Part shown: piece after piece, positions 3,866 to 55,937 of the stretch | Position numbering within the stretch: position 1 is the stretch's first letter | How the letters are laid out: every line of letters begins with the position of its first letter | Origin: Bacillales bacterium UBA6380 | Lineage (GTDB): Bacteria > Bacillota_I > Bacilli_A > RFN20 > CAG-826 | Assembly: GCA_002438785.1 (NCBI GenBank) | Contig: DJQS01000008.1 | Location: forward strand, 2,735 to 66,734 | DNA length: 64,000 nucleotides | Direction of reading: 5' to 3' | Translations under genes and position numbers: made by a program | Notes under the pieces: model-generated | What the model saw: only the letters and a program-made list of their open reading frames with translations | The model's database searches: none | What the model was told of the DNA's origin: nothing

Positions 3866-5548
3866 ATGAAGAGAAGTTTTACTATTTTATGTTTTAATTT
3901 ACTCATAACATCCAGTTTATTTGTTAGTGGATGTAATAATTCAAATTATCAAAATTTATGTACGATTAATTTTTATGTTGAAAATACTATATATGAGACT
4001 AAAAAGATAAATAAAGGTGAAAAATTATCTTATATTGAGGCACCTAAAATTGAAAATAAAGAATTTAAATATTGGACATTAGATTTAAATAGTAATACTG
4101 AATTTAATTTTAATACAATAGTTGAAAATGATTTAAATTTATATGCTTATTATGTTGACTCAGATTCTAATTATATAAAATTAGAACAAGACGATATCAG
4201 ATTTACGTATGATGACGTTTATAAATCGCAATATACTGGAGTAATTCCAAGTATCGGTAATCCTAATATTATAGTTGTTCCTGTTGAATTTAGTGATCAA
4301 ACTAGTTATAAATTTAATTCAAAGAATTTAAATACCTTAAATGCCTTATTTAATGGTAATAAAGAAGATAACACCAATGATTATCGTGAATCAGTACGCA
4401 GTTTTTATAAAAAATCTAGTTATGGATTGTTAGACATAAATTTTATTATAAGTGATGTATATAAGCCAACTATTACAAGTCGAAGTTTTGTAAGTTATGA
4501 AAATAGAGAAGATGGTGGGGGCACTTATAAATTAATTGAAGAATTTTATAATGAAGGGACGATAAACGACAAAAAAATTAACTTTAATGACTCAATATAT
4601 GATCTAAATAATGATAAATATGTTGATGGAATATGGTTTGTTTATAACAATATTAGTGAATATGATGCACAAAATTATTGGCCATATGTTTATTGGTATT
4701 ATGGTAATGATTCAACAATAAATATTAGTGCTTATGGTAATTGTAGTGCATATTTTATGTATGAAGATAGCTCTATTGGACAAGATTATCACACTTTTGT
4801 TCATGAAACAGGCCACATGTTAGGTCTTAATGATTATTATAATAGTAGTATTGATTCACAAATTGGTGCTTGTGGTGGACTTGATATGATGGATCAAAAT
4901 ATCGGTGATCATGATGCTTTTTCAAAATTTAGCTTAGGATGGACTAGTCCTTATATTGTTAAAGATGAGTGTGAAATAACATTAAAACCTTTTTCAACAA
5001 CAGGTGAATCAATTATAGTTGGTAATGAATTTAACAATAGCGCTTTTTCTGAATATTTTATTATTGAATTTTACACCCCAACTAATTTAAATGAATTAGA
5101 TTCTACTAATAAATATCCTAATAGAACTTTATACTATAGCAAAAATGGTGTTCGTATTTTTCATATTGACGCTCGTTTAGGAAAATTCAGTAATGAATAT
5201 AATAGTAGTTTTATGAACGAATTTTTAAATGTTGAAGCTACAAGTATTCCGTCTTTACTAGATACCAATAATAGATACTTTTATAATCCAGTTGGGGATA
5301 ATAGTTTAGATTATTCTTATGATGGTAAAACTCCTTTAATTGAATTAGTTACGAAGGGGAACACCCCTTTAAATAATAAACGTGTTGCTAATGACAATGA
5401 TTTATTTCATGTTGGAGACGTTTTTAATAAAGTAAATCAATCAAATTTTTTTAATAAAGGATTATTTAATAATGGTACATCTTTTGACTATAATGTTAGC
5501 ATTATAGAAATGAATGATAGTTTTGTAAGAATTAAATTTTCTAAATAA
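3866..5548 (+). CDS. surface lipoprotein zinc metalloprotease (HExxH, M6/InhA-like?)
   Basis: Signal peptide with lipobox 'FVSGC'. Zinc-binding motif 'VHETGHMLGLNDYY' (HExxH plus a downstream D). The family assignment is tentative. Confidence 0.6.
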   Translation: MKRSFTILCFNLLITSSLFVSGCNNSNYQNLCTINFYVENTIYETKKINKGEKLSYIEAPKIENKEFKYWTLDLNSNTEFNFNTIVENDLNLYAYYVDSDSNYIKLEQDDIRFTYDDVYKSQYTGVIPSIGNPNIIVVPVEFSDQTSYKFNSKNLNTLNALFNGNKEDNTNDYRESVRSFYKKSSYGLLDINFIISDVYKPTITSRSFVSYENREDGGGTYKLIEEFYNEGTINDKKINFNDSIYDLNNDKYVDGIWFVYNNISEYDAQNYWPYVYWYYGNDSTINISAYGNCSAYFMYEDSSIGQDYHTFVHETGHMLGLNDYYNSSIDSQIGACGGLDMMDQNIGDHDAFSKFSLGWTSPYIVKDECEITLKPFSTTGESIIVGNEFNNSAFSEYFIIEFYTPTNLNELDSTNKYPNRTLYYSKNGVRIFHIDARLGKFSNEYNSSFMNEFLNVEATSIPSLLDTNNRYFYNPVGDNSLDYSYDGKTPLIELVTKGNTPLNNKRVANDNDLFHVGDVFNKVNQSNFFNKGLFNNGTSFDYNVSIIEMNDSFVRIKFSK

Positions 5549-5710: not shown

Positions 5711-6824
5711 ATTTATTATTATAAATTGATATATATATTTCTTTCTCTTTTATAGTTCCACCTGCATGATTTGCCACAAGTGGCTTAAATTTTGAACTTG
5801 AAGTTAATGGATTATTAAATGAATATTCACCTTTAGATATTAGGAAGTAGTCACCTAAAGTGTTAATTGCGTTAATATTATAATTATTTGAATACCCAAA
5901 AATATGTTTTTGTAAAATTTCATCTTTAGTTAATAAAATGAATTTATCTTTATAATATAAGTTATATGCTTTTATAAAATTTTCTGGATTTTCAACAAAA
6001 AAACTTGCAAATCTCCCTTCAATAAAAAAATTTTTAAATTTTAATGAGTTATAAAATAAAGGATACTCATCAATGAAAATATTTTTAACATTAATCATCC
6101 CATGATCAGCTACTAGTATAAATATGGTATTTGGATTATTGTTAACTAAGTTAGAAACTTTAATATCTAAAAGTTTAATTAAGTCTTTTAAACCATAAAA
6201 ATCTATTCCGTTCATATGCATATAATGATCAGGCTCGCAACAATAAAGGTATGTAAAATCAAAGTCTTTTATTTTTTTGCTAGCTTCTTCAAATAATAAA
6301 TCCAAATCATAATCATTATTTTCCTTTAGAAAATTAAAACCCATTAATTGAATTGCTTTGTATTTATTATTGTTATTAATAATTTTGATAAAGTTTGTAA
6401 TATTTAGAATTTTTTCTGTAATTGGTGGATAAATTTTTTCTTTAGTTAATGAATTTGTACTAGGAAATATATCAATAAAAGAATTTATTTTTGGAAAATA
6501 TTGAGACCATCCTATGTAACCAGTTTCAATTGGATATTTACCAGTTAGCAAGGAAGTAGTAGCGGCAACTGTAGTTGGAGGATAAATAGAATTAATTGTT
6601 TTAAAAACATGACTATAAATAAATGGGCAATATTCTTTGTATTTATCGATGATATTTTTGCCAAATCCGTCAAGAAGTATCAAACAAACGTTTTTATTTT
6701 TATTTTTATTTAAAATGTCATCAATATATTTTAAAGAATGATGAAATGTTTGACATTCGAATCTTTTTAATATTGAATTACTGAGATTTACTAAAGTTTC
6801 TTTTTTACTAAGTTCTAATTTCAT
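5709..6824 (-). CDS. alkaline-phosphatase superfamily protein (type I phosphodiesterase / nucleotide pyrophosphatase-like)
   Basis: 'VCLILLDGFG' and 'ILVADHGM' are the metal-ligand motifs of the AlkP-core / nucleotide pyrophosphatase family. Confidence 0.6.
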   Translation of the reverse strand: MKLELSKKETLVNLSNSILKRFECQTFHHSLKYIDDILNKNKNKNVCLILLDGFGKNIIDKYKEYCPFIYSHVFKTINSIYPPTTVAATTSLLTGKYPIETGYIGWSQYFPKINSFIDIFPSTNSLTKEKIYPPITEKILNITNFIKIINNNNKYKAIQLMGFNFLKENNDYDLDLLFEEASKKIKDFDFTYLYCCEPDHYMHMNGIDFYGLKDLIKLLDIKVSNLVNNNPNTIFILVADHGMINVKNIFIDEYPLFYNSLKFKNFFIEGRFASFFVENPENFIKAYNLYYKDKFILLTKDEILQKHIFGYSNNYNINAINTLGDYFLISKGEYSFNNPLTSSSKFKPLVANHAGGTIKEKEIYISIYNNK

Positions 6825-7086
6825 AACTAGTTATTCTAATTTTTCTATGTTATAAAAACAACAAATTTTTAATTTAAAACACAATTTTTTTATTTAAAAT
6901 TTTTAAAAAATACGATTGTGTCTTACTTTTTTAATTAAAATGAAACTAATTTAAAACACAATTGTTTTTTAAAAAGTTAAAAAATGTAAGAATAAATATA
7001 AAAACCTTGTTGTTTTAAAGGATTTTTTTGAAAATTTTACGAAATTAATTATTTATTTTTTAGAATTAAAACATTAATATATAAGT

Positions 7087-7986
7087 ATGCAACACTTAAG
7101 TGACATTATTATAGTATGCTTATTAGCTTACGGATTTATTTTTGGATTAAGCCAAGGTTTTTTTCGAAAACTATGGAGAACTGTCGTTTTTTGTTCGCTT
7201 TTATTAATAATTTACTTTGCTTTTAAAGAAGTTGCAATTGATTTTATTAGATATGACTTATTAAGATTGATTAAACCTGACGGGATTGTTATCAATGTAA
7301 ATGAAGATTATTCAATTATTGCTACAAATATAGAAGATATTTTTGTAGTTTTGCAAAATGCTGATGAAAATTTAAGTGGTCAATATTTGAAACTAACATG
7401 TGCTCTTACATGTAAATTTATCTTTGTAGTTGCTTGCATTGGAGTTTCACTCATTGCTTCTATTGTAATTAGTTGGCCTTCATGGCACTTAGTAAAATTT
7501 ATAATTCCATCTAAGTTTAGAAAGCATGTTGGAATTTTTCAACGTTTATTTGGATGTGTTGTTGGAACATTTGAATGGATAGTAATTACATATTTATACG
7601 CAATTAGTCTTGGACAAGTTTGCCCAATATTAACAGAAATATTACCTTTATTAGAAAACGTTAATCAATTATCTAATTACTATTCTCAAATTAGTGAAGT
7701 AGTTAAATATATTAATCTAATTCTTGATCCTTCTAATTCAATTATTATGACTAATTTATTTAAGATTTTGTCATCTATTGGTATAGATTCTTATAAATTA
7801 TTAAGTTTTGAGTGGAACAACGCTCGTATTTTATTTAAAGATTCTTACGATTCACTTATTAGTGCAATCGATAAAATATTAAAAAATATTAATAGTTCTA
7901 ATAGTGGAAGTGAGAATGAAAATGTGGAAGGAATTTCTAATATAATTTCTTCTTATAAATTCGGTTTTAATTATTTAGGGATATAA
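7087..7986 (+). CDS. CvpA-family membrane protein
   Basis: The N-terminus 'IIIVCLLAYGFIFGLSQGFFRKLWRTVVF' is typical of CvpA (colicin V production) family proteins. Several TM helices. Confidence 0.5.
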   Translation: MQHLSDIIIVCLLAYGFIFGLSQGFFRKLWRTVVFCSLLLIIYFAFKEVAIDFIRYDLLRLIKPDGIVINVNEDYSIIATNIEDIFVVLQNADENLSGQYLKLTCALTCKFIFVVACIGVSLIASIVISWPSWHLVKFIIPSKFRKHVGIFQRLFGCVVGTFEWIVITYLYAISLGQVCPILTEILPLLENVNQLSNYYSQISEVVKYINLILDPSNSIIMTNLFKILSSIGIDSYKLLSFEWNNARILFKDSYDSLISAIDKILKNINSSNSGSENENVEGISNIISSYKFGFNYLGI

Positions 7987-8000
7987 AGGAGGATTAAAAC

Positions 8001-9815
8001 ATGAAAAAGAAAGGGTTGGCTTTGTGGACTGTGCTAACAATTGCCAGTGTATTACTTTTAGTACTTACTTTTTTATTTAGTAGTATCACTGAATGCGTTG
8101 GACTTTACACAAAAGACGCTAGCGAAATTACTTGGTTAAGTTTTGCTAATTTTTTTGCACCATTTGTTTATGGATTTAATGCTATAGCAAGTTTCAGTGT
8201 AAGATATTTAACAATAAGCTTAATTGTTGCTGTTGGATTATTTTTAATCGGAACGGTTGTATTATTTGTTTTAATGGGAGTTAAGAAAAAATGGAAGTAT
8301 TTAGGACAATTTTTTGTTCTATTAATTACCGCTGTTGTAGGTGTTTATTTATTATGCTTTATCTTTGATACTGATGCCTTTAATGGTATGAGTCCATCTA
8401 GACAAATGATTACAACTAACACATTCTATAATAGTTTGTTGCTTTTTACTTCTAATGGTAAGATTCCTGGAAATGTTATTACATCAACTATTTATTATTT
8501 GTTTTTAGTATTTATTGTTACAACAATTGTTGCAGTTTTTGGAATGACTATTTTGACAGCTATTAGACTTTTACAAACAAGAGTTGAAACTAATAATGCT
8601 GCTCCTGTTAAAGATGAAACTGTTAGTAATGCAAAAGTGAATGTTACTGAAGAGGAAAAACCTCTTGAAAAACCAACACCTAAGAAAAAAGTTGTTCTTG
8701 TTGTTAAAAGATATGATAGTTTTAAAGATGCCGGAGAAAAACCTGCTGAAAAACCTACTAATTATCCACATGAACAAGTAGTTGTTGAGCCATTAACTAG
8801 AGAAGATATTCGTCGTGCATTAAAAGAGGAGTTAGATGCTCGTTCAAAAGAAGAACAAAAAATTTCTTCTTACAACGAAATGAATAAATTAAAAGAAGAA
8901 CATTTAACTGTTAGTGAAGCTGATGCAACTAAGGTTGAAAAGGATGAACCACAAATTCCTACACCTGTTATTGTTGCTATTCCTACACCTGTTAAAGAAA
9001 AAGATTTAAATGAAGAATCGACTAAGGTTGAGCCAAAAGTAGAAAAAGAACCTTCTTTAACAAAAGAACAAATTAGGGATATTATTAAAGAAGAATTATT
9101 AAAAGCTTTAGAAGAATTAAAAAATCAAGAACCTGAAGTTGTAGAAGAGGTTGTAGAAGAAGTTCATGAAATTAAAGTACCAGTCGTCAAAAAAGTAGTT
9201 GAAGAAACTAAGACTGAGACTGAGCCTAATAATGAATTAGTAACTGAGGAAGTTAAAGAGGAACCGGTAGAGTCTAAAGAAGAATTAACAGAAGAATCTT
9301 CTACTACTAAACCTGTTGAAGAACAAAAGGCAACAGATGATAAAGAAGAACCAGTCGAAGAATTGGAAGTTAATAAGATTGAGAGAATACCTTTTGCACA
9401 AAGAATTAGAGAAGCTGATGCTGAAACTAAAGATAATTATAATCAAATAAAGTCATTGCTATTAAGTTATGGCTTAAAAAATAGAACAAGTAATGGCGGC
9501 GATGCTTTTAGATTGCATAAAGTTACATATTGTAAAATTACTGTTGCAGGAAAATCCTTGAAACTCTATTTAGCTTTAAACCCAGAAGATTATAAAAATA
9601 CAACTTTACCAATTAAAGATGCTTCTAGTAAAGCAATTTATAAAGAAATACCATTAGTTTTCAAAGTAAAAAGTGGTTTATCGCTTAGAAGAGCTGAACA
9701 ACTAATCACTGAAATGATGGACAAACACGGAATTGAACAAGCTGATCGTGTTGAAGTTAAAGATTATGCTTCTACATTAGAAAATACAACTGATGAAGAA
9801 GATAGTGAAGAATAG
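8001..9815 (+). CDS. membrane-anchored protein, paralog A: about 4 TM helices, an E/K/P-rich disordered linker and a conserved C-terminal domain of unknown function
   Basis: About 190 aa of hydrophobic N-terminus, then about 260 aa of acidic/lysine low complexity containing a 'TPVIVAIPTPV' motif. The C-terminal 115 aa are about 55% identical to the C-terminus of the next gene. Confidence 0.6.
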   Translation: MKKKGLALWTVLTIASVLLLVLTFLFSSITECVGLYTKDASEITWLSFANFFAPFVYGFNAIASFSVRYLTISLIVAVGLFLIGTVVLFVLMGVKKKWKYLGQFFVLLITAVVGVYLLCFIFDTDAFNGMSPSRQMITTNTFYNSLLLFTSNGKIPGNVITSTIYYLFLVFIVTTIVAVFGMTILTAIRLLQTRVETNNAAPVKDETVSNAKVNVTEEEKPLEKPTPKKKVVLVVKRYDSFKDAGEKPAEKPTNYPHEQVVVEPLTREDIRRALKEELDARSKEEQKISSYNEMNKLKEEHLTVSEADATKVEKDEPQIPTPVIVAIPTPVKEKDLNEESTKVEPKVEKEPSLTKEQIRDIIKEELLKALEELKNQEPEVVEEVVEEVHEIKVPVVKKVVEETKTETEPNNELVTEEVKEEPVESKEELTEESSTTKPVEEQKATDDKEEPVEELEVNKIERIPFAQRIREADAETKDNYNQIKSLLLSYGLKNRTSNGGDAFRLHKVTYCKITVAGKSLKLYLALNPEDYKNTTLPIKDASSKAIYKEIPLVFKVKSGLSLRRAEQLITEMMDKHGIEQADRVEVKDYASTLENTTDEEDSEE

Positions 9816-9827
9816 GAGAATCAAATT

Positions 9828-12005
9828 ATGAAAAAAATAAAATTAGTTGGTTGGCCTATAGTATTATTAGTATCTATATTATTGATGGGTGTAAGTGTCT
9901 TCTTTGCTTTCACTCAGCAAGGTTTAGAAATTCTAAAGTGGCCAATAGAAAGTAATGTACCTTTTTATGTAGCTAATGCTTTTAATGGAAGTAAAACTTT
10001 TTTAGGATTATGCAAAAACGCATTACTTCAAAGTTTTATTACCCCTTTTGTTAATTTCTCATTAAGCCCAATTACAATTGCTTTTTATGCTTGTTTTGGA
10101 GTATCAATCCTTTTAATGATTGTGCAAATTATCTATTTTGCAAAATCTAAAAAACCTTCGATGATTTTTTGGATAATTGTAACTTTAATGTTTGCTTTTG
10201 GTAGCATGATGGTTTGTGTTACTGTTCAACAATATTTCGGCGCTTCAGGTGAATATTTTATTGATAAAGCTAATGTTACTGAAATTAATGGTTATAAAGT
10301 AAATCAAGATGCTACTATCAAAAATTTATTATTAAATCCAAACGCAATGTTTGGTGGAAAATTTGCTAAAAAAGGCCTTGTAATGTGTGGCTTAGCTTGG
10401 CTATTTATTGTTAGTGTCGTATTATTTGTTATCTCTTATTTAGTCATTTTCATTCAAACGTTAGTTTATGCAAAAAGTCATAAATTTGATAAAGAACTTG
10501 CAAATAGTAATGCTAATGATGAGATTAATTATGATAATGTAGGCTTAGGTGGCACAACAAACAATATTAATACTGTTGGTAATTCATCACCTTTAATTGT
10601 TCAATATATAAATTCATATGGCCCTGATGCAAGATCAATGAATAATAATTGCTCTTGCCAATGTAATGATCAAACTCCTACTCAATATGGAAATTGTAAT
10701 TGTTCTCAACATATTCAAAATGTTGAAGAAGAAAAGCCTCTTACTAAAGAAGATGTTGAAAATATCATCAACAATGCTTTAAAAGAAACAAAAGAAACTA
10801 AAGAAGAAGTTTCTTATCAAAATGATGCTGGTGAAGAATTAGAATACGTAGATTTGGACGATCTTAAAAATTTAATTAAAGACCAAGTTAGTACTGCTAT
10901 TCATGAAGTAAATGCTGCAAAATCTGCAATCGAAGACAAAAAAGAGGTAGATTTACTCCCGGAAGAAACAAGCACTTATGATGAAAAACCATTTGCTAAG
11001 GATGTCAAAGTTGTAAGTGCAGATAATGATACATCTGACATCGCTGTTGATAACGAAAAGACAAAGGTAAAATTAACTACACCTATTGTTGTTGCTGTTC
11101 CTACTACTTTTGAACCTGAAAAAGAAACTGATTGCTCAGATTGTGATTGTACAAACAATTCTCAAGAAGAAACAGAAACTTTAACTGAAGATGAAATAAG
11201 AAATTTAGTTAGTGAAGAACTTAAATCAGCTTTGAAAGATTTTGCTAAACCAAAGCAAAAGAAAATTATTAAAAAGATAATTAATAAAGAGGTTCCAGAA
11301 TACATTGAAGAAGAGAAACCTGATGTAGAAAGTGATGTTTCTAATGCAAATAAAGAAACGTCTGTTTCTGAAGAACCTACAAATGTTATTGAAACTCCTA
11401 TAAGTATCGAAAAAGAAGTTACTGTCGAATCATCTTCAAAAGATCTTAAGGAAGAAAACGAAGTAAGTAAGGAAGTTCCACTTCAAGAAGAAAAACCTGC
11501 AGAAGTTCAATTAAAAGTTCAAAAAAATAATGAAGTTCGTGGAAAAGAATCTACAATTGAAAAAGGCGAAGTTGTTAGATTAAATTTCTTTGAAAGAATT
11601 GCTTCAGGTGATGATTTATTAAAATCTAATTATAATGCTATTAAAAATTTATTAATGAGTTATGGTTTAAAAGATAGATTATCTAATACTGGTGATACAT
11701 TTAGACTACATAAAGTTACATATGCTAAAATCACTTGTTTAGGTGATTCGTTAAAAATTTATTTAGCTCTTGATCCTAAAGATTATGTTTCAACTGCTTT
11801 ACCAATTCAAGATGTCTCTAGTAAGGATTCTTATAAAGACATTCCATTAGGATTTAAAGTTAGAAGTGATTTATCTTTAAGAAGAGCAAATGAATTGATT
11901 CAATCTACAATGAGAAAAGCAAATCTTGAAGCTCTTAGTGATTATCAAGTGGTAGACTTTGCTAAAGAAATTGAAGATGAAGTTTCAAAGAAAGTAGATA
12001 AATAA
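9828..12005 (+). CDS. membrane-anchored protein, paralog B: about 4 TM helices, Cys-rich and acidic linker, and the same conserved C-terminal domain
   Basis: Same architecture as the 8001 gene. The linker has Cys clusters 'NCSCQCND...GNCNCSQH' and 'DCSDCDCT', plus a 'TPIVVAVPTT' motif. The C-terminus 'FRLHKVTYAKIT...LKIYLALDPKDY...SLRRANELI' matches paralog A. Confidence 0.6.
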   Translation: MKKIKLVGWPIVLLVSILLMGVSVFFAFTQQGLEILKWPIESNVPFYVANAFNGSKTFLGLCKNALLQSFITPFVNFSLSPITIAFYACFGVSILLMIVQIIYFAKSKKPSMIFWIIVTLMFAFGSMMVCVTVQQYFGASGEYFIDKANVTEINGYKVNQDATIKNLLLNPNAMFGGKFAKKGLVMCGLAWLFIVSVVLFVISYLVIFIQTLVYAKSHKFDKELANSNANDEINYDNVGLGGTTNNINTVGNSSPLIVQYINSYGPDARSMNNNCSCQCNDQTPTQYGNCNCSQHIQNVEEEKPLTKEDVENIINNALKETKETKEEVSYQNDAGEELEYVDLDDLKNLIKDQVSTAIHEVNAAKSAIEDKKEVDLLPEETSTYDEKPFAKDVKVVSADNDTSDIAVDNEKTKVKLTTPIVVAVPTTFEPEKETDCSDCDCTNNSQEETETLTEDEIRNLVSEELKSALKDFAKPKQKKIIKKIINKEVPEYIEEEKPDVESDVSNANKETSVSEEPTNVIETPISIEKEVTVESSSKDLKEENEVSKEVPLQEEKPAEVQLKVQKNNEVRGKESTIEKGEVVRLNFFERIASGDDLLKSNYNAIKNLLMSYGLKDRLSNTGDTFRLHKVTYAKITCLGDSLKIYLALDPKDYVSTALPIQDVSSKDSYKDIPLGFKVRSDLSLRRANELIQSTMRKANLEALSDYQVVDFAKEIEDEVSKKVDK

Positions 12006-12045
12006 ATTTCATAAATAAGAATAGACAAAATCTTATAAAAATTAT

Positions 12046-12085
12046 AAAGTGTTAATGTTATGTGTTCATTAACACTTTATTTTTA
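12046..12085 (+). terminator. rho-independent terminator (12-bp perfect stem aaagtgttaatg/cattaacacttt, then T-run)
   Basis: Perfect 12-bp inverted repeat, 9-nt loop, followed by 'atttttat'. Confidence 0.75.
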
Positions 12086-12099
12086 TAGAGGTAATAAGT

Positions 12100-12681
12100 A
12101 TGGGTTATGATGATATAAATACTGGTTTTATTGAGGTTATCGCAGGACCAATGTTTGCTGGTAAGTCTGAAGAGTTAATAAGAAGAATTAATAGACTAAA
12201 ATATGCGAAAAAGAAGTTTTTAGTGTTTAAACCAATTATTGATGATCGTTATAGCATGACAGAAGTTGTATCTCATCAAAAAAGAAGAGAAGTTGCTATA
12301 CCAATTAATGAACCTCGTGAAGTTTTTAATTATATAAAGCCAGATACCGAAGTTGTTTGCATTGATGAAGTTCAATTTTTCAATGATGACATGTTCTATG
12401 TTATTAATGAATTAGCAGATTCTGGTAAAAGGGTTATTTGTGCTGGATTAGATTGCGATTTTCGAGGAGAGCCCTTCCCTCTTACTGCAAAATTATTAGC
12501 TAGAGCTGAATATGTTACTAAATTAACTGCTATTTGTGTTTGCTGTGGTAAAGAAGCCACGATGACCCAAAGACTTATTAATGGTATACCTGCTTATTTT
12601 GATGACCCAATAGTTTTAGTTGGTGCTAGCGAATCTTATGAACCTCGCTGTAGACATTGTCACAAAGTTCTTAAAAGATAA
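12100..12681 (+). CDS. tdk: thymidine kinase
   Basis: '[16 protein letters not shown]' is the P-loop of the Tdk family. C-terminal zinc ribbon 'CxxC...CRHC'. Confidence 0.9.
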
Positions 12682-12797
12682 AAAAACTACTAAATAATTA
12701 CTAAAATATAAGTTTCCAAGAATAAAATATTGGAACTTATTTTTTTATTCTTTACATATGTTAATTTATAAGAGCAACTTTTTTGGAGGATAATAAT

Positions 12798-15113
12798 ATG
12801 AATAAGATTATAAAAAGAGATGGGCGTATCGTAAAATTTGATAGAAATAAAATTTTTAGTGCTATTTTTAAAGCTTTTGCTTCTTTAGATATAGATAATG
12901 AGGATTTAATAAATAATATTGTTGATGAAGTAATAGATCGAATAAATAATAAATATAATGATAAATTGCCAAGAGTTGAAGATGTTCAGGATGAAATTGA
13001 AAAAGTTTTAATTGAGCATAATGAAGCTGAAGTAGCTAAGGCTTATATTTTATATCGTGCGAATAGAACTAGAATTAGAGAAAGTAAGACTCATTTAATG
13101 GAAACTTTAAAAGATATTACTTTTAAAGATGCTAAAGATAATAATACAAAAAGAGAAAACGCAAACATTGATGGCGATACTGCGATGGGTTGTATGCTAA
13201 GATATGGCAGTGAATCAGCTAAGGAATTTTATTTATCTAATGTAATTGATCCTCGCTTTGCTAAGGCTCATCGAGAAGGTGATATTCATATTCATGATAT
13301 GGATTTTTACACATTAACTATGACTTGTTGCCAAATTGATATCTTAGAATTATTTAAAAATGGATTTTCAACTGGGCATGGATTTTTAAGGGAGCCTCAA
13401 TCTATTAGAAGTTATTCTTCGTTAGCTTGTATCGCAATACAAGCTAATCAAAATGATATGCATGGTGGACAATCTATTCCTAATTTTGATTATGGCATGG
13501 CTCCTGGAGTTATTAAAACATATCGTAAAAGTATTGTAAGAAATATTTGTATTGTTTTAGGAACCTATGTCGATCATATTTGTAAAGATGAAGCAAAAGA
13601 AATTGTTAAAGAAGCTGAAGAATTATCTCATGATGAATGTCGTATCGGACATAAAGATTTTGAAAATTCTTTATATAATGTGATAGCAACTAGATTTGAA
13701 GACTTAGACGATCCTCTTAAATTAACTAATTTCATTTTAAAGACATCTTATAATGAAACTAGAGAAGAAACATATCAAGCAATGGAGGCTTTAATCCATA
13801 ATTTGAATACAATGCATTCACGTGCAGGTGCCCAAGTTCCTTTTTCTAGCTTAAATTATGGAACAGATACTTCTATTGAAGGAAGAATGGTTATTGATTG
13901 CCTACTTGATGCTACTTTAGCTGGTTTAGGTGATGGAGAAACTCCTATTTTTCCAATTCAAATTTTTAAATTAAAAGAAGGAGTAAGTTATAATAAAGAA
14001 GATCCAAATTATGATTTATTCAGAAAAGCTATTCGAGTAAGTGGAGCAAGATTGTTTCCAAATTTCTCTTTTTTAGATGCACCATTTAATTTGAAATATT
14101 ATAAAAAGGGCGATTATAAGACAGAAATCAGCTACATGGGATGTAGAACCCGTGTTATGGGGAATGTTGATAAAACTAAAGAAATTACTACTGGTCGAGG
14201 TAATTTAAGCTTTACATCTATTAATTTGCCAAGGCTTGGTATTAAACATAAAAATGATATCGATGGATTCTTTAATGAGTTAGATGAAAAAATGGATCTT
14301 GTAAAAGATCAATTATTAGAAAGATTTAAAATTCAATGTTCTAAGAAAGTTTACAACTTTCCATTTTTAATGGGTCAACATATTTGGCTTGATAGTGATA
14401 AATTAAAGTGGAATGACACAATTGAATCTGTAATTAGACATGGTACTTTAACTGTTGGATTTATTGGATTAGCAGAATGCTTAAAGGCTTTAATTGGCAA
14501 GCATCATGGTGAAAGCGATGAAGCGCAAGAATTAGGTGTAAAAATTATTGGTCATATGAGAGATAAGACTGATGAATATACAAAAAAATATAATTTAAAT
14601 TTTAGTTTAATTGCAACACCTGCTGAGGGCCTTAGTGGTCGTTTTGTAAAAATAGATAAAGAAAAATATGGAATAATTCCTGGTGTTACAGATCGTGATT
14701 ACTATACGAATTCATTCCATATTCCTGTTTATTATAAAATCTCTATTTTCGATAAGATAAAGAAAGAAGGTCCATACAATGCTTTAACTAATGGTGGACA
14801 TATTACTTATGTTGAAGTTGATGGCGATGTTGCTAAAAATGAAAAAGCATTTGAAAGTATTATTAGATGTATGCATGATAATGGTATTGGATATGGCTCT
14901 GTTAACCATCCTATCGATCGTGACCCTGTTTGTGGATATAATGGCATAATTGATGAATGCTGTCCTAAATGCGGTAGACATGAAGATGACACTAAATTCG
15001 AAAGAATTAGAAGAATTACTGGATATCTTGTTGGAACAACTGAGCGTTTTAATGATGCTAAAAAGGTTGAATTATCCCAAAGAGTTAAGCATTTAACGAA
15101 AGATAATTTATAA
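12798..15113 (+). CDS. nrdD: anaerobic ribonucleoside-triphosphate reductase (class III RNR)
   Basis: N-terminal ATP-cone 'MNKIIKRDGRIVKFDRNKI'. C-terminal glycyl-radical region 'RITGYLVG' and zinc-binding 'CxxC...CPKC'. GGAGGA ribosome-binding site 7 nt upstream of the ATG at 12798. The six-frame track starts earlier, at a TTG at 12783. Confidence 0.9.
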   Translation: MNKIIKRDGRIVKFDRNKIFSAIFKAFASLDIDNEDLINNIVDEVIDRINNKYNDKLPRVEDVQDEIEKVLIEHNEAEVAKAYILYRANRTRIRESKTHLMETLKDITFKDAKDNNTKRENANIDGDTAMGCMLRYGSESAKEFYLSNVIDPRFAKAHREGDIHIHDMDFYTLTMTCCQIDILELFKNGFSTGHGFLREPQSIRSYSSLACIAIQANQNDMHGGQSIPNFDYGMAPGVIKTYRKSIVRNICIVLGTYVDHICKDEAKEIVKEAEELSHDECRIGHKDFENSLYNVIATRFEDLDDPLKLTNFILKTSYNETREETYQAMEALIHNLNTMHSRAGAQVPFSSLNYGTDTSIEGRMVIDCLLDATLAGLGDGETPIFPIQIFKLKEGVSYNKEDPNYDLFRKAIRVSGARLFPNFSFLDAPFNLKYYKKGDYKTEISYMGCRTRVMGNVDKTKEITTGRGNLSFTSINLPRLGIKHKNDIDGFFNELDEKMDLVKDQLLERFKIQCSKKVYNFPFLMGQHIWLDSDKLKWNDTIESVIRHGTLTVGFIGLAECLKALIGKHHGESDEAQELGVKIIGHMRDKTDEYTKKYNLNFSLIATPAEGLSGRFVKIDKEKYGIIPGVTDRDYYTNSFHIPVYYKISIFDKIKKEGPYNALTNGGHITYVEVDGDVAKNEKAFESIIRCMHDNGIGYGSVNHPIDRDPVCGYNGIIDECCPKCGRHEDDTKFERIRRITGYLVGTTERFNDAKKVELSQRVKHLTKDNL

Positions 15114-15631
15114 TGACTGACTTTATAAGAATTGCTAGTGTCATTGACGATTCTATTGTTGATGGTCCTGGTATAAGGATGACAATTTTCTTTCAAGGAT
15201 GTAATCATAAATGTTTCGGTTGCTTTAATAAAGAAACATGGGATTTTCAAGGCGGACATTTATGTGACATTAATAAAATTTATGAAGCCGCTATGAAGAA
15301 TCCTCTATTAAGCGGAATTACTTTAAGTGGAGGCGATCCTATTTATCAAGTTAGTGGTGCATTAAAATTAATAAATTTGTTTCAAAATACAAATTTAGAT
15401 ATTATGGTTTATACTGGTTTCACATATGAAGAACTTCTCGAAATGGAAAAAAATAATGAAGATTTGCATACTTTTTTAGATAAAATAGATTATTTAGTTG
15501 ATGGTCCTTTTGAAATTGATAAAAAAGATATTGGATTAAAATTTCGTGGTTCGTCAAATCAAAGAATTATTGATATGAAAAAAACTAGAAAAGAAGGAAA
15601 AATTATTACTACTGATTTTTCAAATTACTAA
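15113..15631 (+). CDS. nrdG: anaerobic ribonucleotide reductase activating protein (radical SAM)
   Basis: 'GCNHKCFGC' is a CxxxCxxC radical-SAM cluster motif. Glycine-rich 'LSGGDP'. The start overlaps the nrdD stop. Confidence 0.85.
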   Translation: MTDFIRIASVIDDSIVDGPGIRMTIFFQGCNHKCFGCFNKETWDFQGGHLCDINKIYEAAMKNPLLSGITLSGGDPIYQVSGALKLINLFQNTNLDIMVYTGFTYEELLEMEKNNEDLHTFLDKIDYLVDGPFEIDKKDIGLKFRGSSNQRIIDMKKTRKEGKIITTDFSNY

Positions 15632-16157
15632 TATTTTCAACATAAATATCATTTATTAGCATTGATATGTCTTTAATAGGAATATTGGAAGTGTCAATTG
15701 TATAGTTGACACTTTTAATATTGTCATTAGAGAAATTTTCATCATCAATTTCTAATCTAGTGGAGATTGTAATTTCATCATCTAATCGATTTATCATTCT
15801 TTGTTTTCTAATTTCTTTTTTGCAATTTAAAAAGAATGTAATTATGGTTGGATCATTCAACTTGTTAAAAGCTATTAATCCGTTTGGATCAACTATTAAA
15901 ATTGTATTAAGACTTATATTCTTTTTTTCAGTTCCATAATAATTATTATTATATAAAGTGTATTCTATTAATTTATGTTCTTTAATTAAATGGAGAAAAC
16001 TAGTTTTATCAACAAAATGGTAATCTATCCCATCTATTTCTCCAATTCTTTTATTTCTAGTTGTAGTTGTAACAAACTTCTTATAGTTATAATTTTTACA
16101 TAAATATTTTGATATTTCTGTTTTTCCACTAGCACTTGGGCCTACCAATATAATCAT
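15609..16157 (-). CDS. gmk: guanylate kinase (short form)
   Basis: 'ILVGPSASGKTE' P-loop, 'TTTTRNKRIGEIDGIDYHFV' and 'YYGT' match Gmk signatures. Its 3' end overlaps the nrdG 3' end by 23 bp in convergent orientation. Confidence 0.65.
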   Translation of the reverse strand: MIILVGPSASGKTEISKYLCKNYNYKKFVTTTTRNKRIGEIDGIDYHFVDKTSFLHLIKEHKLIEYTLYNNNYYGTEKKNISLNTILIVDPNGLIAFNKLNDPTIITFFLNCKKEIRKQRMINRLDDEITISTRLEIDDENFSNDNIKSVNYTIDTSNIPIKDISMLINDIYVENISNLKNQ

Positions 16158-16244
16158 ATAGAAATTCTATAATAATTTAAAAATATTTTAAACTTTAAAA
16201 TTTTACCCCCATATATTTTGTTTTATTAACGACTTGTTATATGA

Positions 16245-17288
16245 ATGATTATGAATTATAAAATTTTATTTGCTACACTACCATGCTTATTATCTATATC
16301 TTCATTAAAAAAAGAAGTAAAAGAAGAAATTGAAGTTTATGATAAGCATATATATCAACAATCAAACTTATTTAATGTTAATGATTTTACATTTTCAATT
16401 AATAATGATGGTACATTTGAAGGTGATTTTTCACTTGAATCAAAAATAACAACAACACCTTTTTATGTAGATTTACTATATATTGAAGATGGAGAAACTC
16501 AAAAATCTTATGATCGAATTAGTATCCATAAACTAATTACGACAAGTAATAAAAAATATACATATAGTTTTAGTCTTAGTTTTTCTAAAAATATTGATAT
16601 TATAAATTTTGAGATTTCTTTTAGTATGCCTATATTAAAGAATTATTTAAATATTAAATTTAGTATCGATAATCCATTAGCTAGGGTAGAAATTTCTAAT
16701 GAGAAAAAATTATTTTATAAATATGAGTTTAAAAATTATATTGGATATAATTATTATTATTTATTTAAACCAACTAGTTTTTTAAACGCGCAAAAGCGTA
16801 TATTTTATTATGATTATTTTTCATTCAATAATTTTTATATTGAATCTAATTTTGATAACGCTTTTGATAGTGCTTATTTTTATATCGAACCTAAATATAC
16901 ACATTTATTAAGAATATTTAATCAATTTAATTCAATCTATCCTTTATACAAATTTTTAAAACTTAATCATTTTCATGATTTAAATAGAAGCTTCATTATG
17001 TTTAAAAATATTTATTATTATAATCCATTAACAAATTTTATGTATTTAACTAATAATGGCAAATATAAAGAAGTTCAAAATAGAATTTATATGCCTTTAA
17101 AATATTATGATATATATAAAAACTTTTCAATTGGACTCTATTTAAAATCTTTTAGTCCAAAAAAGTATCAAATTTTTTATACATATAATATGTTTTTCGA
17201 AAAAAATTATAAAAAAGATTACGCAGTTATTTATAAAGATAATTTCCAAATTACAAGTGATGATACCTTGGAGAATATTAAATTATGA
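16245..17288 (+). CDS. secreted N/Y/F-rich protein, hypothetical; first gene of the CpaF-ATPase locus
   Basis: N-terminal signal-like segment 'ILFATLPCLLSISS'. Highly biased N/Y/F/K composition. The stop overlaps the start of the next ORF. Confidence 0.45.
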   Translation: MIMNYKILFATLPCLLSISSLKKEVKEEIEVYDKHIYQQSNLFNVNDFTFSINNDGTFEGDFSLESKITTTPFYVDLLYIEDGETQKSYDRISIHKLITTSNKKYTYSFSLSFSKNIDIINFEISFSMPILKNYLNIKFSIDNPLARVEISNEKKLFYKYEFKNYIGYNYYYLFKPTSFLNAQKRIFYYDYFSFNNFYIESNFDNAFDSAYFYIEPKYTHLLRIFNQFNSIYPLYKFLKLNHFHDLNRSFIMFKNIYYYNPLTNFMYLTNNGKYKEVQNRIYMPLKYYDIYKNFSIGLYLKSFSPKKYQIFYTYNMFFEKNYKKDYAVIYKDNFQITSDDTLENIKL

Positions 17289-17695
17289 TGAATGTAGTAT
17301 TTATTTTTATAACTACAATATTATTATCCATATTTAATATTTTTAATATTACATATAAAGGAAATGAAATAAATAGAATTGTTATGAATATACCGCTTAA
17401 TTTGCTTAAAAATAGTATTGTTATTGAAGAAATTACAGAAGATGATTTTAATGCTTATTTTTTAAAAGATGAAGTAGAAAAAGACATTAAAAAATATTTA
17501 AATACATCTTTAAAAGGGAAAATAAATGAATATAATTTATCATTCTTTTATTATAAATATGATAGTAATGATATTTTAATAAAAGACAATAGTAATAAAC
17601 CGATTAATTTTCAATTACATTTTCATTGCAATTATTATAAAAATTATGATCTTAATCGATATTTAAAATTTAGGATTGAAGAGATTTGGGGGTAA
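17285..17695 (+). CDS. small membrane-anchored protein, hypothetical
   Basis: Single N-terminal TM helix 'VVFIFITTILLSIF'. Translationally coupled to its neighbours (ATGA overlap). Confidence 0.4.
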   Translation: MMNVVFIFITTILLSIFNIFNITYKGNEINRIVMNIPLNLLKNSIVIEEITEDDFNAYFLKDEVEKDIKKYLNTSLKGKINEYNLSFFYYKYDSNDILIKDNSNKPINFQLHFHCNYYKNYDLNRYLKFRIEEIWG

Positions 17696-17697
17696 TT

Positions 17698-18750
17698 ATG
17701 GAATGCGACAAAGTATTAGAATTTATTGAAAACTCTTTTTTAAAAGATTTATTAAATAACGAGAATATTACTGATATTTCATATAATGGAGAAACTATTT
17801 ATTATCAAGATAATTTAAAAGGCAGAATTAAAAGTTTAATAGAAGTAAATAGTAAAGAAGCTTATGATTTCATTAGACAAATAGCGAACTTATCTGACGC
17901 TCAATTTAGTTACACTGATCCGTTATTAGATATTAGTGTTGGAAAATATCGTATTAATGCTACTCATTATGCTATTTCTAGAAAAAAGAGAGAAAAATCA
18001 ATTTCATTTAGTATCCGTATAGGTTTTAATGAACTTAGAATTAAAAATGATAATTCTTTTATAACTAATAAGTGTAATGATTTAATTAATATTTTTTTAA
18101 AAAATAATAATTCAATAATAATTGGCGGATTAACAAGTAGTGGTAAAACAGAATTACAAAAATATTTGATTTCTACATTAAAGCCTGCAACAAGAATTAT
18201 AGTTATCGATAATGTAGATGAATTAGATATTGATTATATAAATTCTTCTTTAGACATTCAAACATGGTTAAATTTAGAAAAAGATAAAAAAATAAGTTTT
18301 GATCTACTTGTAAAAAACGCTCTTAGAAATAATCCTGATTATTTAATTGTTAGTGAAGCTCGAGGGGAAGAGATGTTATCAATATTAAATAGTGCGATGA
18401 GCGGTCATCCAACTATTACAACAATTCATTCTAAAAATATAATGAATATGTATTCAAGAATTACTAGAATGGCTATGTTAAAAAATCAGGCTTTAAAATT
18501 TGATGAAACTTTCATTGATGTTTTAGATCAATTTAAATTAATTATACATGTTAAAAAAGAAATAAAAGAAAATAACACAATAAAAAGATATATTGATTCT
18601 ATTGCTACAAATAGATTTAATAAAATTAGAATTCTATATAGATATCCTAACTATTATTATAAATTACCTAATTCAATTAAATATGATCTTAATCTAAGTA
18701 ACGATGAATTTAATAGCTTAAAAGAAAAATGGGAAGATAACTATGCTTAA
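17698..18750 (+). CDS. CpaF/TadA/VirB11-family secretion ATPase
   Basis: Walker A 'IIIGGLTSSGKTE'. Walker B / Asp box 'DYLIVSEARGEE'. His box 'MSGHPTITTIHSKN'. GGGGGT ribosome-binding site upstream of the ATG at 17698; the six-frame track starts at a TTG at 17686. Confidence 0.8.
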   Translation: MECDKVLEFIENSFLKDLLNNENITDISYNGETIYYQDNLKGRIKSLIEVNSKEAYDFIRQIANLSDAQFSYTDPLLDISVGKYRINATHYAISRKKREKSISFSIRIGFNELRIKNDNSFITNKCNDLINIFLKNNNSIIIGGLTSSGKTELQKYLISTLKPATRIIVIDNVDELDIDYINSSLDIQTWLNLEKDKKISFDLLVKNALRNNPDYLIVSEARGEEMLSILNSAMSGHPTITTIHSKNIMNMYSRITRMAMLKNQALKFDETFIDVLDQFKLIIHVKKEIKENNTIKRYIDSIATNRFNKIRILYRYPNYYYKLPNSIKYDLNLSNDEFNSLKEKWEDNYA

Positions 18751-19516
18751 AAGATTTCTAATATATTTAATAATTTGCCTAATTATTGGCGGGATGAATT
18801 TTTATATAACAAATAATGTTTATTTTAGCATTGGACTATTTATTATTGGAATATTGATATTTTCATTAGGCATTGATAAATCTATTAATCAATTTTTTAT
18901 TAAAGAAAAAAAGACAAAAGAGGCGATAAATTTTATTTCCAATTTCATAATTACTTTGTCAATTAATAAAAGCATATTGTCAACTTTTAATACCGTCGAA
19001 GAATCTTTCTCTAAAGATTTAAAAAATCAGGTTTATTTAATTAATAATCTAAATGTAGAAGAAAAAATAAAGTATCTAAGTAAATATTTTGCCTTATCTA
19101 TTTATGATGTGTTTTTAAATTTAATCGATCAATATATCTATAACGGAGGAGACGTTTTAAAGATTTCTCAATTACTTTTATTTGATGTTAGAAAGATTGA
19201 AGAAAAACTTGATTCACATAATGATATATTGATCAAAAAACTCATGGAATTCATTATTTTATGGATTATGATATTTGTAATTGTAATAATCATGAAATTA
19301 TCATTAGCTGATTATTTTTTAAAAATAGCATCATTAGATTATTTTAAATATGGAATGGGAATATTTTATCTTGGATTTTATCTAAATTTACTTATATTTA
19401 CATTACATGGATGTAATTTAGATTTTATTGAAACAAGTAAAATAAAAAATGAAGAAGTAACAAAAAAATGGAAGGTTAAAAATGTCAAAGTTAAAAGAAA
19501 AGATAGAGTCTTGTAA
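18743..19516 (+). CDS. polytopic membrane protein, TadB/GspF-like platform candidate
   Basis: N-terminal TM pair, a cytoplasmic about 120-aa domain and C-terminal TM helices. Its position directly after the ATPase, with 8-nt coupling, fits a platform protein. The family call rests on context only. Confidence 0.45.
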   Translation: MLKRFLIYLIICLIIGGMNFYITNNVYFSIGLFIIGILIFSLGIDKSINQFFIKEKKTKEAINFISNFIITLSINKSILSTFNTVEESFSKDLKNQVYLINNLNVEEKIKYLSKYFALSIYDVFLNLIDQYIYNGGDVLKISQLLLFDVRKIEEKLDSHNDILIKKLMEFIILWIMIFVIVIIMKLSLADYFLKIASLDYFKYGMGIFYLGFYLNLLIFTLHGCNLDFIETSKIKNEEVTKKWKVKNVKVKRKDRVL

Positions 19517-20141
19517 TCTAAATTATAAAAGAGAAATTTCAACTTTAATTATTTTAAATATTATTATTTTAATACTTAGTTTTGTTATTTTCATTTTTTC
19601 AAAAAATATTAGACTTTTGCTTTATTTTGCAATAATATTGGTATTATTTAATTTTTATTATTTAACAAAATACAATCGAATAATAGTTAAAAGAAAAAAT
19701 GATTTAACATTTGATTTTATAAATGTATTTAGTTATTTTCGAATTTATATTTCAAATTATAGAAATGTTTATATGTCAATTAAAGAAATAAGTAATTATG
19801 CTTCACCTTTTATAAAAATAAAACTTATAGAATTATTAGATAATATTGATAACGATAAAACCATCAAACCATTCATAACTTTTGCTAATTATTTTAATGA
19901 TAAAAAAATAGAAGAAGTAATGATAGCAATTTATGAAATGGTTAATGAAGGAAATAATGAAAATTATATTAACCAATTTGTAAGCATTTTTGAAACTTAT
20001 AAAGCTAGGATTGAAAAAACTAAAGAAGAGAAAAGAATAAATACTTTCAATAGAATTTGTTCTTTAAGTATCATCGGTGTAGGTATTTTAATGATTATTA
20101 TCATGCTTGGGATTGTAAATATGATAGGAGATCTAATCTAA
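19482..20141 (+). CDS. polytopic membrane protein, TadC/GspF-like platform candidate
   Basis: Same topology as the previous gene (TM, soluble domain, TM). GGAAGG ribosome-binding site. Overlaps the upstream gene. Confidence 0.45.
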   Translation: MSKLKEKIESCNLNYKREISTLIILNIIILILSFVIFIFSKNIRLLLYFAIILVLFNFYYLTKYNRIIVKRKNDLTFDFINVFSYFRIYISNYRNVYMSIKEISNYASPFIKIKLIELLDNIDNDKTIKPFITFANYFNDKKIEEVMIAIYEMVNEGNNENYINQFVSIFETYKARIEKTKEEKRINTFNRICSLSIIGVGILMIIIMLGIVNMIGDLI

Positions 20142-20506
20142 TGAGTAATAAACTAGCTTTTATTTTATCTATCTATATTATTTTAATGACTTTTTTATTT
20201 GGAACTGATTTAGTTATGTTACAAGTAAATTATTCAAATCTTGATTCATTAAGTCAATTAATATCTTTTAAAATAAGTGATTATGGAATTGATGAAAATG
20301 GTGATATTGATTCTACAATAATAGAATTTGCAAAAAACAATTTAAATGCGGACTTAATTAGAGCTGATGAAAGCTCAAAGCAATATAAAGAAGGTGATTT
20401 ATATCCTTATTTTCTTTTTAAAGAATATGATGCCATTATGCTTTCTATTACTCCAATTAAAGTTCAAATTAAGCGATATGCAGTTATCGGAATAAATCAC
20501 ACTTAA
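20141..20506 (+). CDS. small membrane-anchored protein, minor pseudopilin-like (TadE-like?)
   Basis: The ATG overlaps the upstream stop (TAATG). Single N-terminal hydrophobic helix 'LAFILSIYIILMTFLFG' followed by a soluble domain. Confidence 0.35.
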   Translation: MSNKLAFILSIYIILMTFLFGTDLVMLQVNYSNLDSLSQLISFKISDYGIDENGDIDSTIIEFAKNNLNADLIRADESSKQYKEGDLYPYFLFKEYDAIMLSITPIKVQIKRYAVIGINHT

Positions 20507-26180: not shown

Positions 26181-26181
26181 A

Positions 26182-26454
26182 ATGAAGGAAAACTTAAAGA
26201 TTTATAATATATTAAAATTAATGAATGATGGATATTCTTTTATATCCTATGTAAATAATGAAGAAGTAACATTTTTTATAGATTCTGATAATGTAATTGC
26301 TATTTCTAATTATTATAGGCTAAAACTAAATAAAACTGATTTTATGAAACTATATAAAGACAATGAATTCATGTTAAAAGAAGACATTGATAAAGTAAAG
26401 ATGGATTTAAATAAAGATTTAGAATATTATTCAAAGATTCAAAAAAGACAGTGA
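26182..26454 (+). CDS. hypothetical small protein
   Basis: 90-aa ORF, tightly packed between neighbours with a 1-nt gap upstream. Confidence 0.35.
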   Translation: MKENLKIYNILKLMNDGYSFISYVNNEEVTFFIDSDNVIAISNYYRLKLNKTDFMKLYKDNEFMLKEDIDKVKMDLNKDLEYYSKIQKRQ

Positions 26455-26461
26455 GGCATAT

Positions 26462-27478: not shown

Positions 27479-27489
27479 GATTAGTAGAT

Positions 27490-55924: not shown

Positions 55925-55937
55925 TTATAATTAAAAT

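Follow-up and report, generated by a model that had tools for sequence, protein, structure and literature searches.

Two adjacent genes on the plus strand, hereafter paralogs A and B, occupy positions 8,001 to 12,005 of the window, by which we mean the whole 64,000-nucleotide stretch analysed here (Bacillales bacterium UBA6380, GenBank assembly GCA_002438785.1, contig DJQS01000008.1, positions 2,735 to 66,734 of the forward strand). The two genes are co-directional, are separated by a gap of 12 nucleotides and encode proteins of like design, in which an N-terminal anchor of four transmembrane (TM) helices is followed by a long acidic linker and a basic C-terminal alpha/beta domain [Table 1]. 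The domain is a member of a large family absent from Pfam and NCBIfam, and we tentatively propose, from its sequence, its predicted fold and the company it keeps in distant relatives, that it binds nucleic acid at the inner face of the membrane. The G+C content of the window is very low (0.19-0.33), and its genes read well with translation table 11.

An earlier note on this DNA had described A and B as tandem paralogs of 604 and 725 residues; both open reading frames (ORFs) were recovered, and their products align over their full length by BLASTP at E 1e-55. In their C-terminal regions, the two proteins share 55.7% identity over 140 residues (E 8.7e-54), in agreement with the figure of about 55% given in the note, and the identity rises to 59% over a core of 111 residues. 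Neither the TM regions (best E 0.74) nor the linkers (best E 0.10) of the two proteins are significantly similar in pairwise comparison. Because significance is confined to the C-terminal regions, the similarity of A and B is that of a globular domain and not of low-complexity sequence; outside this domain, the two proteins have in common only their architecture and short motifs. Scans for DNA tandem repeats returned tiny repeats only, which indicates that the paralogy does not reflect a recent DNA repeat.

Table 1. Features of paralogs A and B and of the adjacent upstream gene in the window, and location of the McrBC-like cluster in distant relatives
Feature	Position	Strand	Remarks
Multi-pass membrane protein, weakly CvpA/Colicin_V-like, 299 aa	7087..7986	+	Pfam PF02674 E 0.004, 17.5 bits
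Paralog A ORF	8001..9815	+	604 aa; Shine-Dalgarno AAGGAGG 8-9 nt before ATG
A: 4-TM anchor, aa 1-199, predicted N-in/C-in	8001..8597	+	Hydropathy; AlphaFold; positive-inside statistics
A: acidic linker, predicted cytoplasmic, E/K/V/P/T-rich	8598..9374	+	263 aa, pI 4.6; mostly disordered, two confident helices
A: linker helix motif 1, LTREDIRRALKEEL	8793..8834	+	
A: TPVIVAIPT, aa 321-329	8961..8987	+	pLDDT ~40 in monomer model
A: linker helix motif 2, LTKEQIRDIIKEEL	9057..9098	+	R359 and E365 in nearly invariant columns (72-sequence alignment)
A: C-terminal basic alpha/beta domain, aa 459-585, pI 9.5	9375..9755	+	Acidic tail follows to 9812
Paralog B ORF	9828..12005	+	725 aa; Shine-Dalgarno GGAG 8-9 nt before ATG
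B: 4-TM anchor, aa 1-217	9828..10478	+	Hydropathy
B: PLIVQYI motif	10590..10610	+	Family consensus TGATFGGPLVVQYFNG
B: Cys-rich linker cluster CSCQCNDQTPTQYGNCNC	10650..10703	+	
B: TPIVVAVPT, aa 418-426	11079..11105	+	
B: linker helix motif, LTEDEIRNLVSEEL	11181..11222	+	
B: C-terminal basic alpha/beta domain, aa 580-706, pI 9.0	11565..11945	+	Identity to A domain
McrBC-like cluster (predicted)	L084 6467-11183; L090 4417-10188; L091 4452-10869		Unrelated metagenomic contigs

Scans of A and B against Pfam and NCBIfam returned only noise at E <= 1, and a sequence-profile search of the PDB with the domain gave no match, in line with the earlier note, which could assign the domain to no known family; no characterised Pfam family was found to cover it. 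All 40 relatives retrieved by a word-indexed search are without a name. A profile search of 1.84 billion representatives identified 3178 clusters at E <= 1e-3, 2710 of them at E <= 1e-10, these counts being of representatives at 50% identity, and 293 species-representative genomes encode a relative. Among the best 80 of these 293, nearly all are metagenome-assembled genomes from gut, rumen or faeces, labelled Bacilli, Mollicutes, Erysipelotrichaceae, Candidatus Onthovivens or Candidatus Enteromonas; the NCBI taxonomy places Onthovivens in Bacillota; Bacilli, and we take the small-genome gut Bacilli that carry the family to fall in the GTDB order RF39. The suggestion that the domain is a lineage-specific module is contradicted by this distribution and by its presence in PDC-S18 (see below). 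Conserved signatures of the domain are SRxSxxGDxFRLH, GKxLKLYxALxPxDY and PLVFKVKSxLSxRR. In a set of 201 retrieved homologues, from which all architecture counts are drawn, four TM helices with one C-terminal domain form the dominant arrangement (106 proteins), and in 186 no more than 40 residues follow the domain. Paralog A carries all the features of this family of 4TM - acidic linker - basic domain proteins (an anchor predicted to be N-in/C-in, LTxEDIR-type helices in the linker and, in the domain, GDxFRLH ... GKxLKLY ... PLVFKVKS), and paralog B carries all of them except the lysine of the GK pair, which reads GD instead. Both the family and its architecture appear to be undescribed, and no source gives them a name; in the library searched, we found no paper mentioning PDC-S18, and the sole paper on DUF5655 was irrelevant.

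The domain segments of the family have a median pI of 9.2 and a mean net charge of +5 inside otherwise acidic proteins, the linker and tail that flank them being strongly acidic. Ten alignment columns are at least 80% Lys or Arg (R468, K484, R495, R504, K512, K518, K555, K557, R563 and R564 in A). In the AlphaFold model of the domain (pLDDT 90, pTM 0.84, from a 27-sequence alignment), these residues sit on the strands, at the beta3-beta4 turn (K518) and where the last helix begins; the model opens with two helices and a four-stranded meander, after which come a short helix, a further two strands and a long helix at the C-terminus. A Foldseek search of the PDB with this model yielded no match at E <= 1e-3. 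Its top match was YjbR (2fki; E 0.03, probability 0.99, TM-scores 0.46/0.56, 98 columns, approximately 9-10% identity), followed by 2od0 (VP1028), which we take to be a TfoX N-terminal domain, and by the YdhG/DUF1801 proteins 9t2w and 2oc6. The same list recurred, with 2i8d and 2kl4 in addition, when the full-length model of A was used, and among viral models (BFVD) the best matches were a protein without a name (E 2.7e-5) and one from phage with DUF5655 (E 2.7e-3). The informative fold neighbours, all of them weak matches, belong to a single group, that of the 'double-wing' or secretion-chaperone-like alpha/beta sandwiches.

The closest structural neighbour, MmcQ/YjbR (PF04237), is like the modelled domain a small alpha/beta sandwich. 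It was described (PMC7641849) as a 'double-wing' fold like that of the DNA-binding C-terminus of T4 MotA, with fusions to nucleases and EVE domains that are found in defence contexts; fusion to nuclease or restriction-type modules is a property that YjbR shares with relatives of the window domain. YjbR proteins, however, are free-standing, of about 118 residues, neither membrane-tethered nor arranged in tandem arrays, and the domain studied here differs further in its extra N-terminal helices and its distinct conserved signature. PF04237 was not matched at E <= 1 by A or B, nor at E <= 0.01 by nine multi-copy relatives, nor at E <= 1 among the families listed (the first 25 of 83) for 72 full-length homologues. 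Since there is no sequence-level link to YjbR, we do not count the domain as a member of PF04237 but assign it to a new sequence family of its own, with a predicted fold like that of YjbR and YdhG. YdhG/DUF1801, DUF5655 and 2od0 were recurrent top Foldseek matches with weak scores (TM-score 0.3-0.48), and their functional labels are diverse or lacking; DUF1801/YdhG, DUF5655 and TfoX_N had no Pfam match in A, in B or among the families listed for the 72 homologues.

As to the placement of the domain relative to the membrane, the earlier note had allowed for both a cytoplasmic and an extracellular head. As that note had proposed, both proteins begin with four hydrophobic helices, within the first 190-217 residues (at about 3-37, 61-96, 99-127 and 155-191 in A; at about 1-33, 77-107, 110-135 and 179-217 in B). 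AlphaFold places helices of the A anchor at 2-34, 65-94, 98-122 and 157-199 with block-mean pLDDT of 83-93, and the 4-TM part of this model has no informative PDB neighbour by Foldseek. Basic residues flank the helices of A at the N-terminus (MKKK) and in the TM2-3 loop (KKKWKY). Across 109 four-TM homologues, Lys and Arg reach a density of 0.26 in three segments taken together (the N-terminal flank, the loop between TM2 and TM3, and the first 15 residues beyond TM4), against 0.047 in loops 1 and 3; the positive-inside rule is obeyed, with the C-terminus inside, in 108 of the 109. From this pattern, A and B are predicted to be N-in/C-in proteins, both ends of the anchor, the linker and the domain facing the cytoplasm. 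Weak matches to DUF4064 (PF13273) were found in the N-terminal TM region of 8 of the 72 full-length homologues (best E 5.5e-5); DUF4064 proteins are small, multi-pass and uncharacterised, lack the linker and the domain, and A and B were not matched.

Variants of the family that lack the four-helix anchor, together with fusions of the domain to DUF2357/McrC-like proteins, lend further support to a cytoplasmic placement. One of these is P0029 (L081 8001-8732), a protein of 243 residues with neither a TM helix nor a signal peptide that consists of one LTEADVRRIISEEL helix and the domain; its gene, in a related lineage, stands where the family gene is found elsewhere (pyrG - gene - CNNM), so that some species can do without the membrane anchor. 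In single-TM variants, such as P0126, the flank that follows the TM helix is basic. These findings, with the topology statistics, are difficult to reconcile with the alternative that the linker is an envelope-spanning stalk and the domain an extracellular adhesin or ligand-binding head, the former being one of the roles that the earlier note had listed. Linkers rich in Glu, Pro, Thr and Lys are common in Gram-positive surface proteins, a Big_2 domain is found in one homologue and a signal-peptide-like start in another, all of which would suit such a head; but the positive-inside pattern, the anchor-less and single-TM variants, the fusion to cytoplasmic McrC-like proteins, the CxC-rich clusters of B-type linkers (described below) and a zinc ribbon in one homologue all speak for the other side of the membrane, and we consider an extracellular head very improbable.

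The linkers themselves are long and acidic (263 residues in A; 359 residues, pI 4.4 in B), as expected from the earlier note, but not wholly disordered as it had supposed. In the AlphaFold model of A, pLDDT falls below 50 at residues 202-261, 307-350 and 391-446, and two segments form confident helices (267-302, block-mean pLDDT 72-90; 355-389, block-mean pLDDT 69-86). Both helices bear the repeated motif L[TS]xE[DE]IRxxxxEEL, of which A has two copies and B one strict copy. A helix motif of this LTxEDIR type is present in 20 of 23 upstream (A-type) and 12 of 23 downstream (B-type) copies of tandem pairs, and in 40 of 58 single-copy relatives. The motif TP[IV][IV]VA[IV]PT, to which the note had drawn attention, does occur in both proteins but is poorly conserved in its strict form (8 of 104 relatives). 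Another motif, of the PLVVQY type (consensus TGATFGGPLVVQYFNG), has no counterpart in A; PLVVQYFNG is found in 80 of 152 homologues. We note that metallothionein-like, CxC-rich clusters with at least four Cys occur in 9 of the 23 B-type linkers, where their position and length vary by species; the downstream copy of locus L019 has CVCNCNCNCNCGCNCHDNCQCGCSCGCDCGSNC, and that of L006 also has one. Such clusters may bind metal or may be drifting low-complexity sequence.

A tandem pair is found in 22 of the 80 loci compared for synteny (L001-L022), and a single gene encoding 570-860 residues in the other 58. In a neighbour-joining tree of the domains, the B-type copies are monophyletic (23/23) and the A-type copies form one clade, which also contains one single-copy sequence; this topology points to one duplication. 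The duplication is confined to one sub-clade, most relatives being encoded by single genes. Paralog A is the ancestral-type copy and paralog B the diverged downstream copy. Lys518 is kept in 21 and His506 in all 22 of the A-type copies of the 22 loci, and PLVVQY is found in none of 23 A-type copies. PLVVQY is kept in 20 of 23 B-type copies, in which His506 is relaxed (15/22) and Lys518 is replaced by Ser, Gln, Asp or Glu in B of the window and in at least 20 of 22 loci. The single-copy proteins have both features (K518 in 55/58, PLVVQY in 42/58). The divergence of A and B is thus a textbook case of subfunctionalisation with complementary loss, of PLVVQY in A and of K518 in B, and this complementarity suggests that the two proteins now work together.

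The latter observation would also fit a different role for the domain, namely that of a protein-binding or chaperone-like module that recruits or sequesters a cytoplasmic partner, or that binds linear motifs such as PLVVQY in its own linker or in that of its paralog. A motif kept in B and an intact domain in A would fit an interaction of motif and domain between the two proteins; the conserved linker motifs (PLVVQYFNG and the repeated LTxEDIR helices) resemble docking sites, and the fold group to which the domain is likened also includes Spa15 and InvB, which are type III secretion chaperones, as well as YdhG-like proteins that were deposited as frataxin. The chaperone matches, however, are the weakest in the group (probability 0.1-0.25, TM-score ~0.3), the monomer AlphaFold model docks none of the linker motifs present in A, and the basic surface with its ten Lys/Arg columns, like the McrBC-like fusions, points more naturally to a polyanionic ligand. 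We regard protein binding as rather unlikely; were it to prove right, the pair would still be a clean case of subfunctionalisation after tandem duplication.

In the window, A follows the gene for a weakly CvpA-like membrane protein (whose PF02674 score of 17.5 bits lies below the Pfam cutoff of 29.3 bits) by 14 nucleotides, and the two are probably co-transcribed. The proposed operon structure rests on the 12-14-nucleotide gaps; promoter and terminator scans over 6700-12900 gave results no better than those for shuffled sequence. Downstream of B lie genes for thymidine kinase (tdk), NrdD and NrdG and, beyond nrdG, a guanylate-kinase-like gene on the opposite strand and an operon with a T2SSE (ComGA-like) ATPase. 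Of the 22 loci with a pair, 19 have a CvpA-like ortholog directly before it (L015, L020 and L022 lack one) and 20 have tdk downstream (L010 and L013 lack it). The recurrent order, gltX/pyrG(/dagK) - gene - (tdk) - CNNM x2 - gmk-like (opposite strand) - T2SSE operon, is found across species loci and in independent metagenomic contigs and is housekeeping in style, not that of a variable island. Because opposite-strand genes intervene, the association with the T2SSE operon is one of synteny only. In the window, this region extends over 15609-20506, the minus-strand guanylate-kinase-like gene being followed by a plus-strand operon in which the ATPase gene (17686-18750) is accompanied by five ORFs without Pfam matches, two upstream and three downstream; the operon is probably of the competence-pilus type. 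Its position downstream of the family gene is kept in many relatives, and nothing points to its forming one operon with A and B.

Additional information on the domain comes from proteins in which it is repeated. Tandem arrays of two to seven copies are present in 40 of the 201 homologues, and 14 array proteins have a common DUF2357-type N-terminus of 300-450 residues, which in P0048 matches Pfam DUF2357 above threshold (E 1e-9) and PADLOC PDC-M26B weakly. In three independent loci (L084, L090 and L091), a gene for a McrB-like AAA_5 ATPase of about 510 residues lies immediately upstream of the array gene; these ATPases match PADLOC PDC-M26A at E 1e-36 to 1e-38 and, with the DUF2357 array proteins, constitute predicted McrBC-like pairs. 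The McrB-like neighbour and the DUF2357 N-terminus are features of the distant relatives P0041, P0045 and P0048 and not of the window, where the neighbours of A and B are the CvpA-like gene and thymidine kinase; the Pfam and PADLOC scans gave no DUF2357 or AAA_5 match there. No catalytic constellation is conserved in the wider family, H506 and R504 varying in the repeats of P0041, P0048 and P0052, and the lack of a catalytic signature in combination with the arrays, which are typical of polymer-binding modules, suggests that the domain serves to bind a ligand that is itself repetitive or polymeric.

The array proteins of L084, L090 and L091, of 1060-1622 residues, combine a DUF2357/McrC-like N-terminus with three to seven domain copies, and their genes are followed by one for an unknown protein of 246-429 residues and then by one or more EAL-domain genes; L084 and L091 have two EAL genes around a PNP_UDP_1 gene, and L090 has a single GGDEF+EAL gene and no PNP_UDP_1. 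From its gene content, the cluster looks like an undescribed McrBC-like system linked to c-di-GMP phosphodiesterases, in which the repeat array may replace the usual nuclease end. The multi-copy proteins P0048 and P0052 have, after every copy of the domain, a short conserved stretch of the type (A)PLI(E/A)RGLI(K/H)(I/V), perhaps another small component of the repeat.

The domain was also found in the PADLOC phage-defence candidate PDC-S18 (models PDLC04945 and PDLC04946), of whose 365 positions 189-328 align to residues 442-581 of A (E 4e-7) and 197-329 to the domain of B (E 1e-4). Relatives match this model down to E 6e-27 (multi-copy proteins), likewise over its C-terminal half only (positions about 175-330), and the domain can be equated by sequence with that half, which has no name of its own. 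Neither A nor B aligns with the N-terminal half of PDC-S18; they have the 4-TM anchor and the long linker in its place. The kinship with PDC-S18, along with the three loci in which array proteins adjoin McrB-like PDC-M26A ATPases, raises the question of whether A and B form a defence or sensor system directed against phage or other foreign DNA, in which they would sense invading nucleic acid at the membrane. We consider this improbable, given that the match to PDC-S18 covers only its C-terminal half, that no effector domain (such as a nuclease, TIR or pore-former) was detectable in Pfam, NCBIfam and PADLOC scans, and that A and B lie not in variable defence islands but in the same housekeeping neighbourhood in some 80 species loci and in metagenomic contigs. 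The family was likewise not found in phage, plasmid or IMG/VR collections, searches with the window domain or with a divergent repeat of P0052 giving no match.

The basic character of the domain, its arrays, the McrC-like fusions, the McrB-like neighbours and PDC-S18 favour a role in nucleic acid recognition, and our tentative proposal is that DNA, or perhaps RNA, is the ligand of the head and that the protein tethers nucleic acid to the inner face of the membrane. Among the roles put forward in the earlier note, that of a nucleic acid-binding head is, as we infer it, the one that best fits the evidence, which speaks neither for nor against the division or cytoskeletal tether also listed there. 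According to this proposal, the domain would be a ligand-binding and not a catalytic module, in which conserved Lys and Arg residues on the beta-sheet and hairpin, with K518 at the beta3-beta4 turn, would contact the nucleic acid. DNA, or possibly RNA, would be held at the membrane on a long, flexible leash of adjustable distance, and the acidic linker and tail may compete intramolecularly with the polyanionic ligand. A single ancestral gene duplicated once in one sub-clade, and its job would have been divided, A having the intact head and B the PLVVQY motif and an altered head.

An analogous architecture is that of FtsK/SpoIIIE, an N-in/C-in protein in which an N-terminal 4-TM anchor of about 200 residues and a long low-complexity linker precede a C-terminal module ending in a small winged DNA-recognition domain. 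A and B would resemble it in architecture only, in having an N-in/C-in anchor, a long linker and a C-terminal module; they have no ATPase motor domain, their linker is acidic and E/K-rich rather than P/Q-rich, and neither FtsK_4TM nor FtsK_SpoIIIE of Pfam was matched in A, in B or among the families listed for the 72 homologues. The resemblance is thus to be read as analogy and not as membership. A bolder version of the proposal, which we think unlikely, would make the family a core, motor-less, FtsK-like tether of small-genome gut Bacilli between the membrane and the nucleoid or incoming DNA, with a new double-wing-type domain that was also recruited, in tandem arrays, as the recognition module of an undescribed McrBC-like system, and would have the Onthovivens-like clade rely on an obligate A/B heteromer, with the docking motif in one subunit and the intact DNA-binding wing in the other.

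Several observations weigh against a nucleic acid-binding tether. The fold matches on which it draws are weak (Foldseek E 0.03-0.3, TM-score 0.46-0.56); alignment of the domain profile to that of YjbR by hhalign gave a probability of 0.4, the YjbR alignment being of low diversity and nearly all Enterobacteriaceae; the DNA binding of YjbR is itself a structural prediction (PMC7641849); and the same fold group includes type III secretion chaperones and the YdhG-like 9t2w, deposited as frataxin. The conserved neighbours (gltX, pyrG, dagK, tdk, nrdDG, CNNM and the gmk-like gene) provide no functional coupling, and TPVIVAIPT is not docked in the full-length monomer AlphaFold model of A. Finally, a Big_2 Ig-like domain lies in the linker of the homologue P0062, and P0008, a short homologue on a 1-kb contig, has a signal-peptide-like N-terminus; both may be signs that rare members of the family are located outside the cytoplasm.

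If nucleic acid binding is confirmed, a name and a function would be assigned to a large orphan family of more than 3000 clusters (50% identity), absent from Pfam, NCBIfam and the PDB, whose gene is conserved and syntenic in abundant uncultured bacteria of the human and animal gut. The YjbR-type double-wing fold would gain a new sequence family, the C-terminal half of PDC-S18 and the repeat arrays of McrC-like proteins would be explained, likely as nucleic acid recognition modules, and a concrete candidate would be at hand for a connection between DNA and membrane in bacteria with reduced genomes.

Other parts of the window contain further membrane and surface-like proteins. At 30158-32315, overlapping ORFs encode another two paralogous membrane proteins in tandem, of 357 and 367 residues, each of which has a C-terminal RDD domain (E 1e-7 and 5e-10). 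A surface-like protein of 952 residues with Big_2 (41286-44144; E 6e-12) indicates that the organism uses this domain on other proteins, and another surface-like protein, of 560 residues (3866-5548), has a Listeria-Bacteroides repeat (Flg_new; E 2.5e-5) whose score of 24.7 bits is below the 27-bit cutoff. The G+C content drops to 0.19-0.24 at 16001-20000, 26001-28000, 30001-32000, 44001-50000 and 54001-58000, most core genes being at 0.27-0.30, and these low-G+C stretches partly coincide with ORFs without Pfam matches, for example that at 46594-48519.

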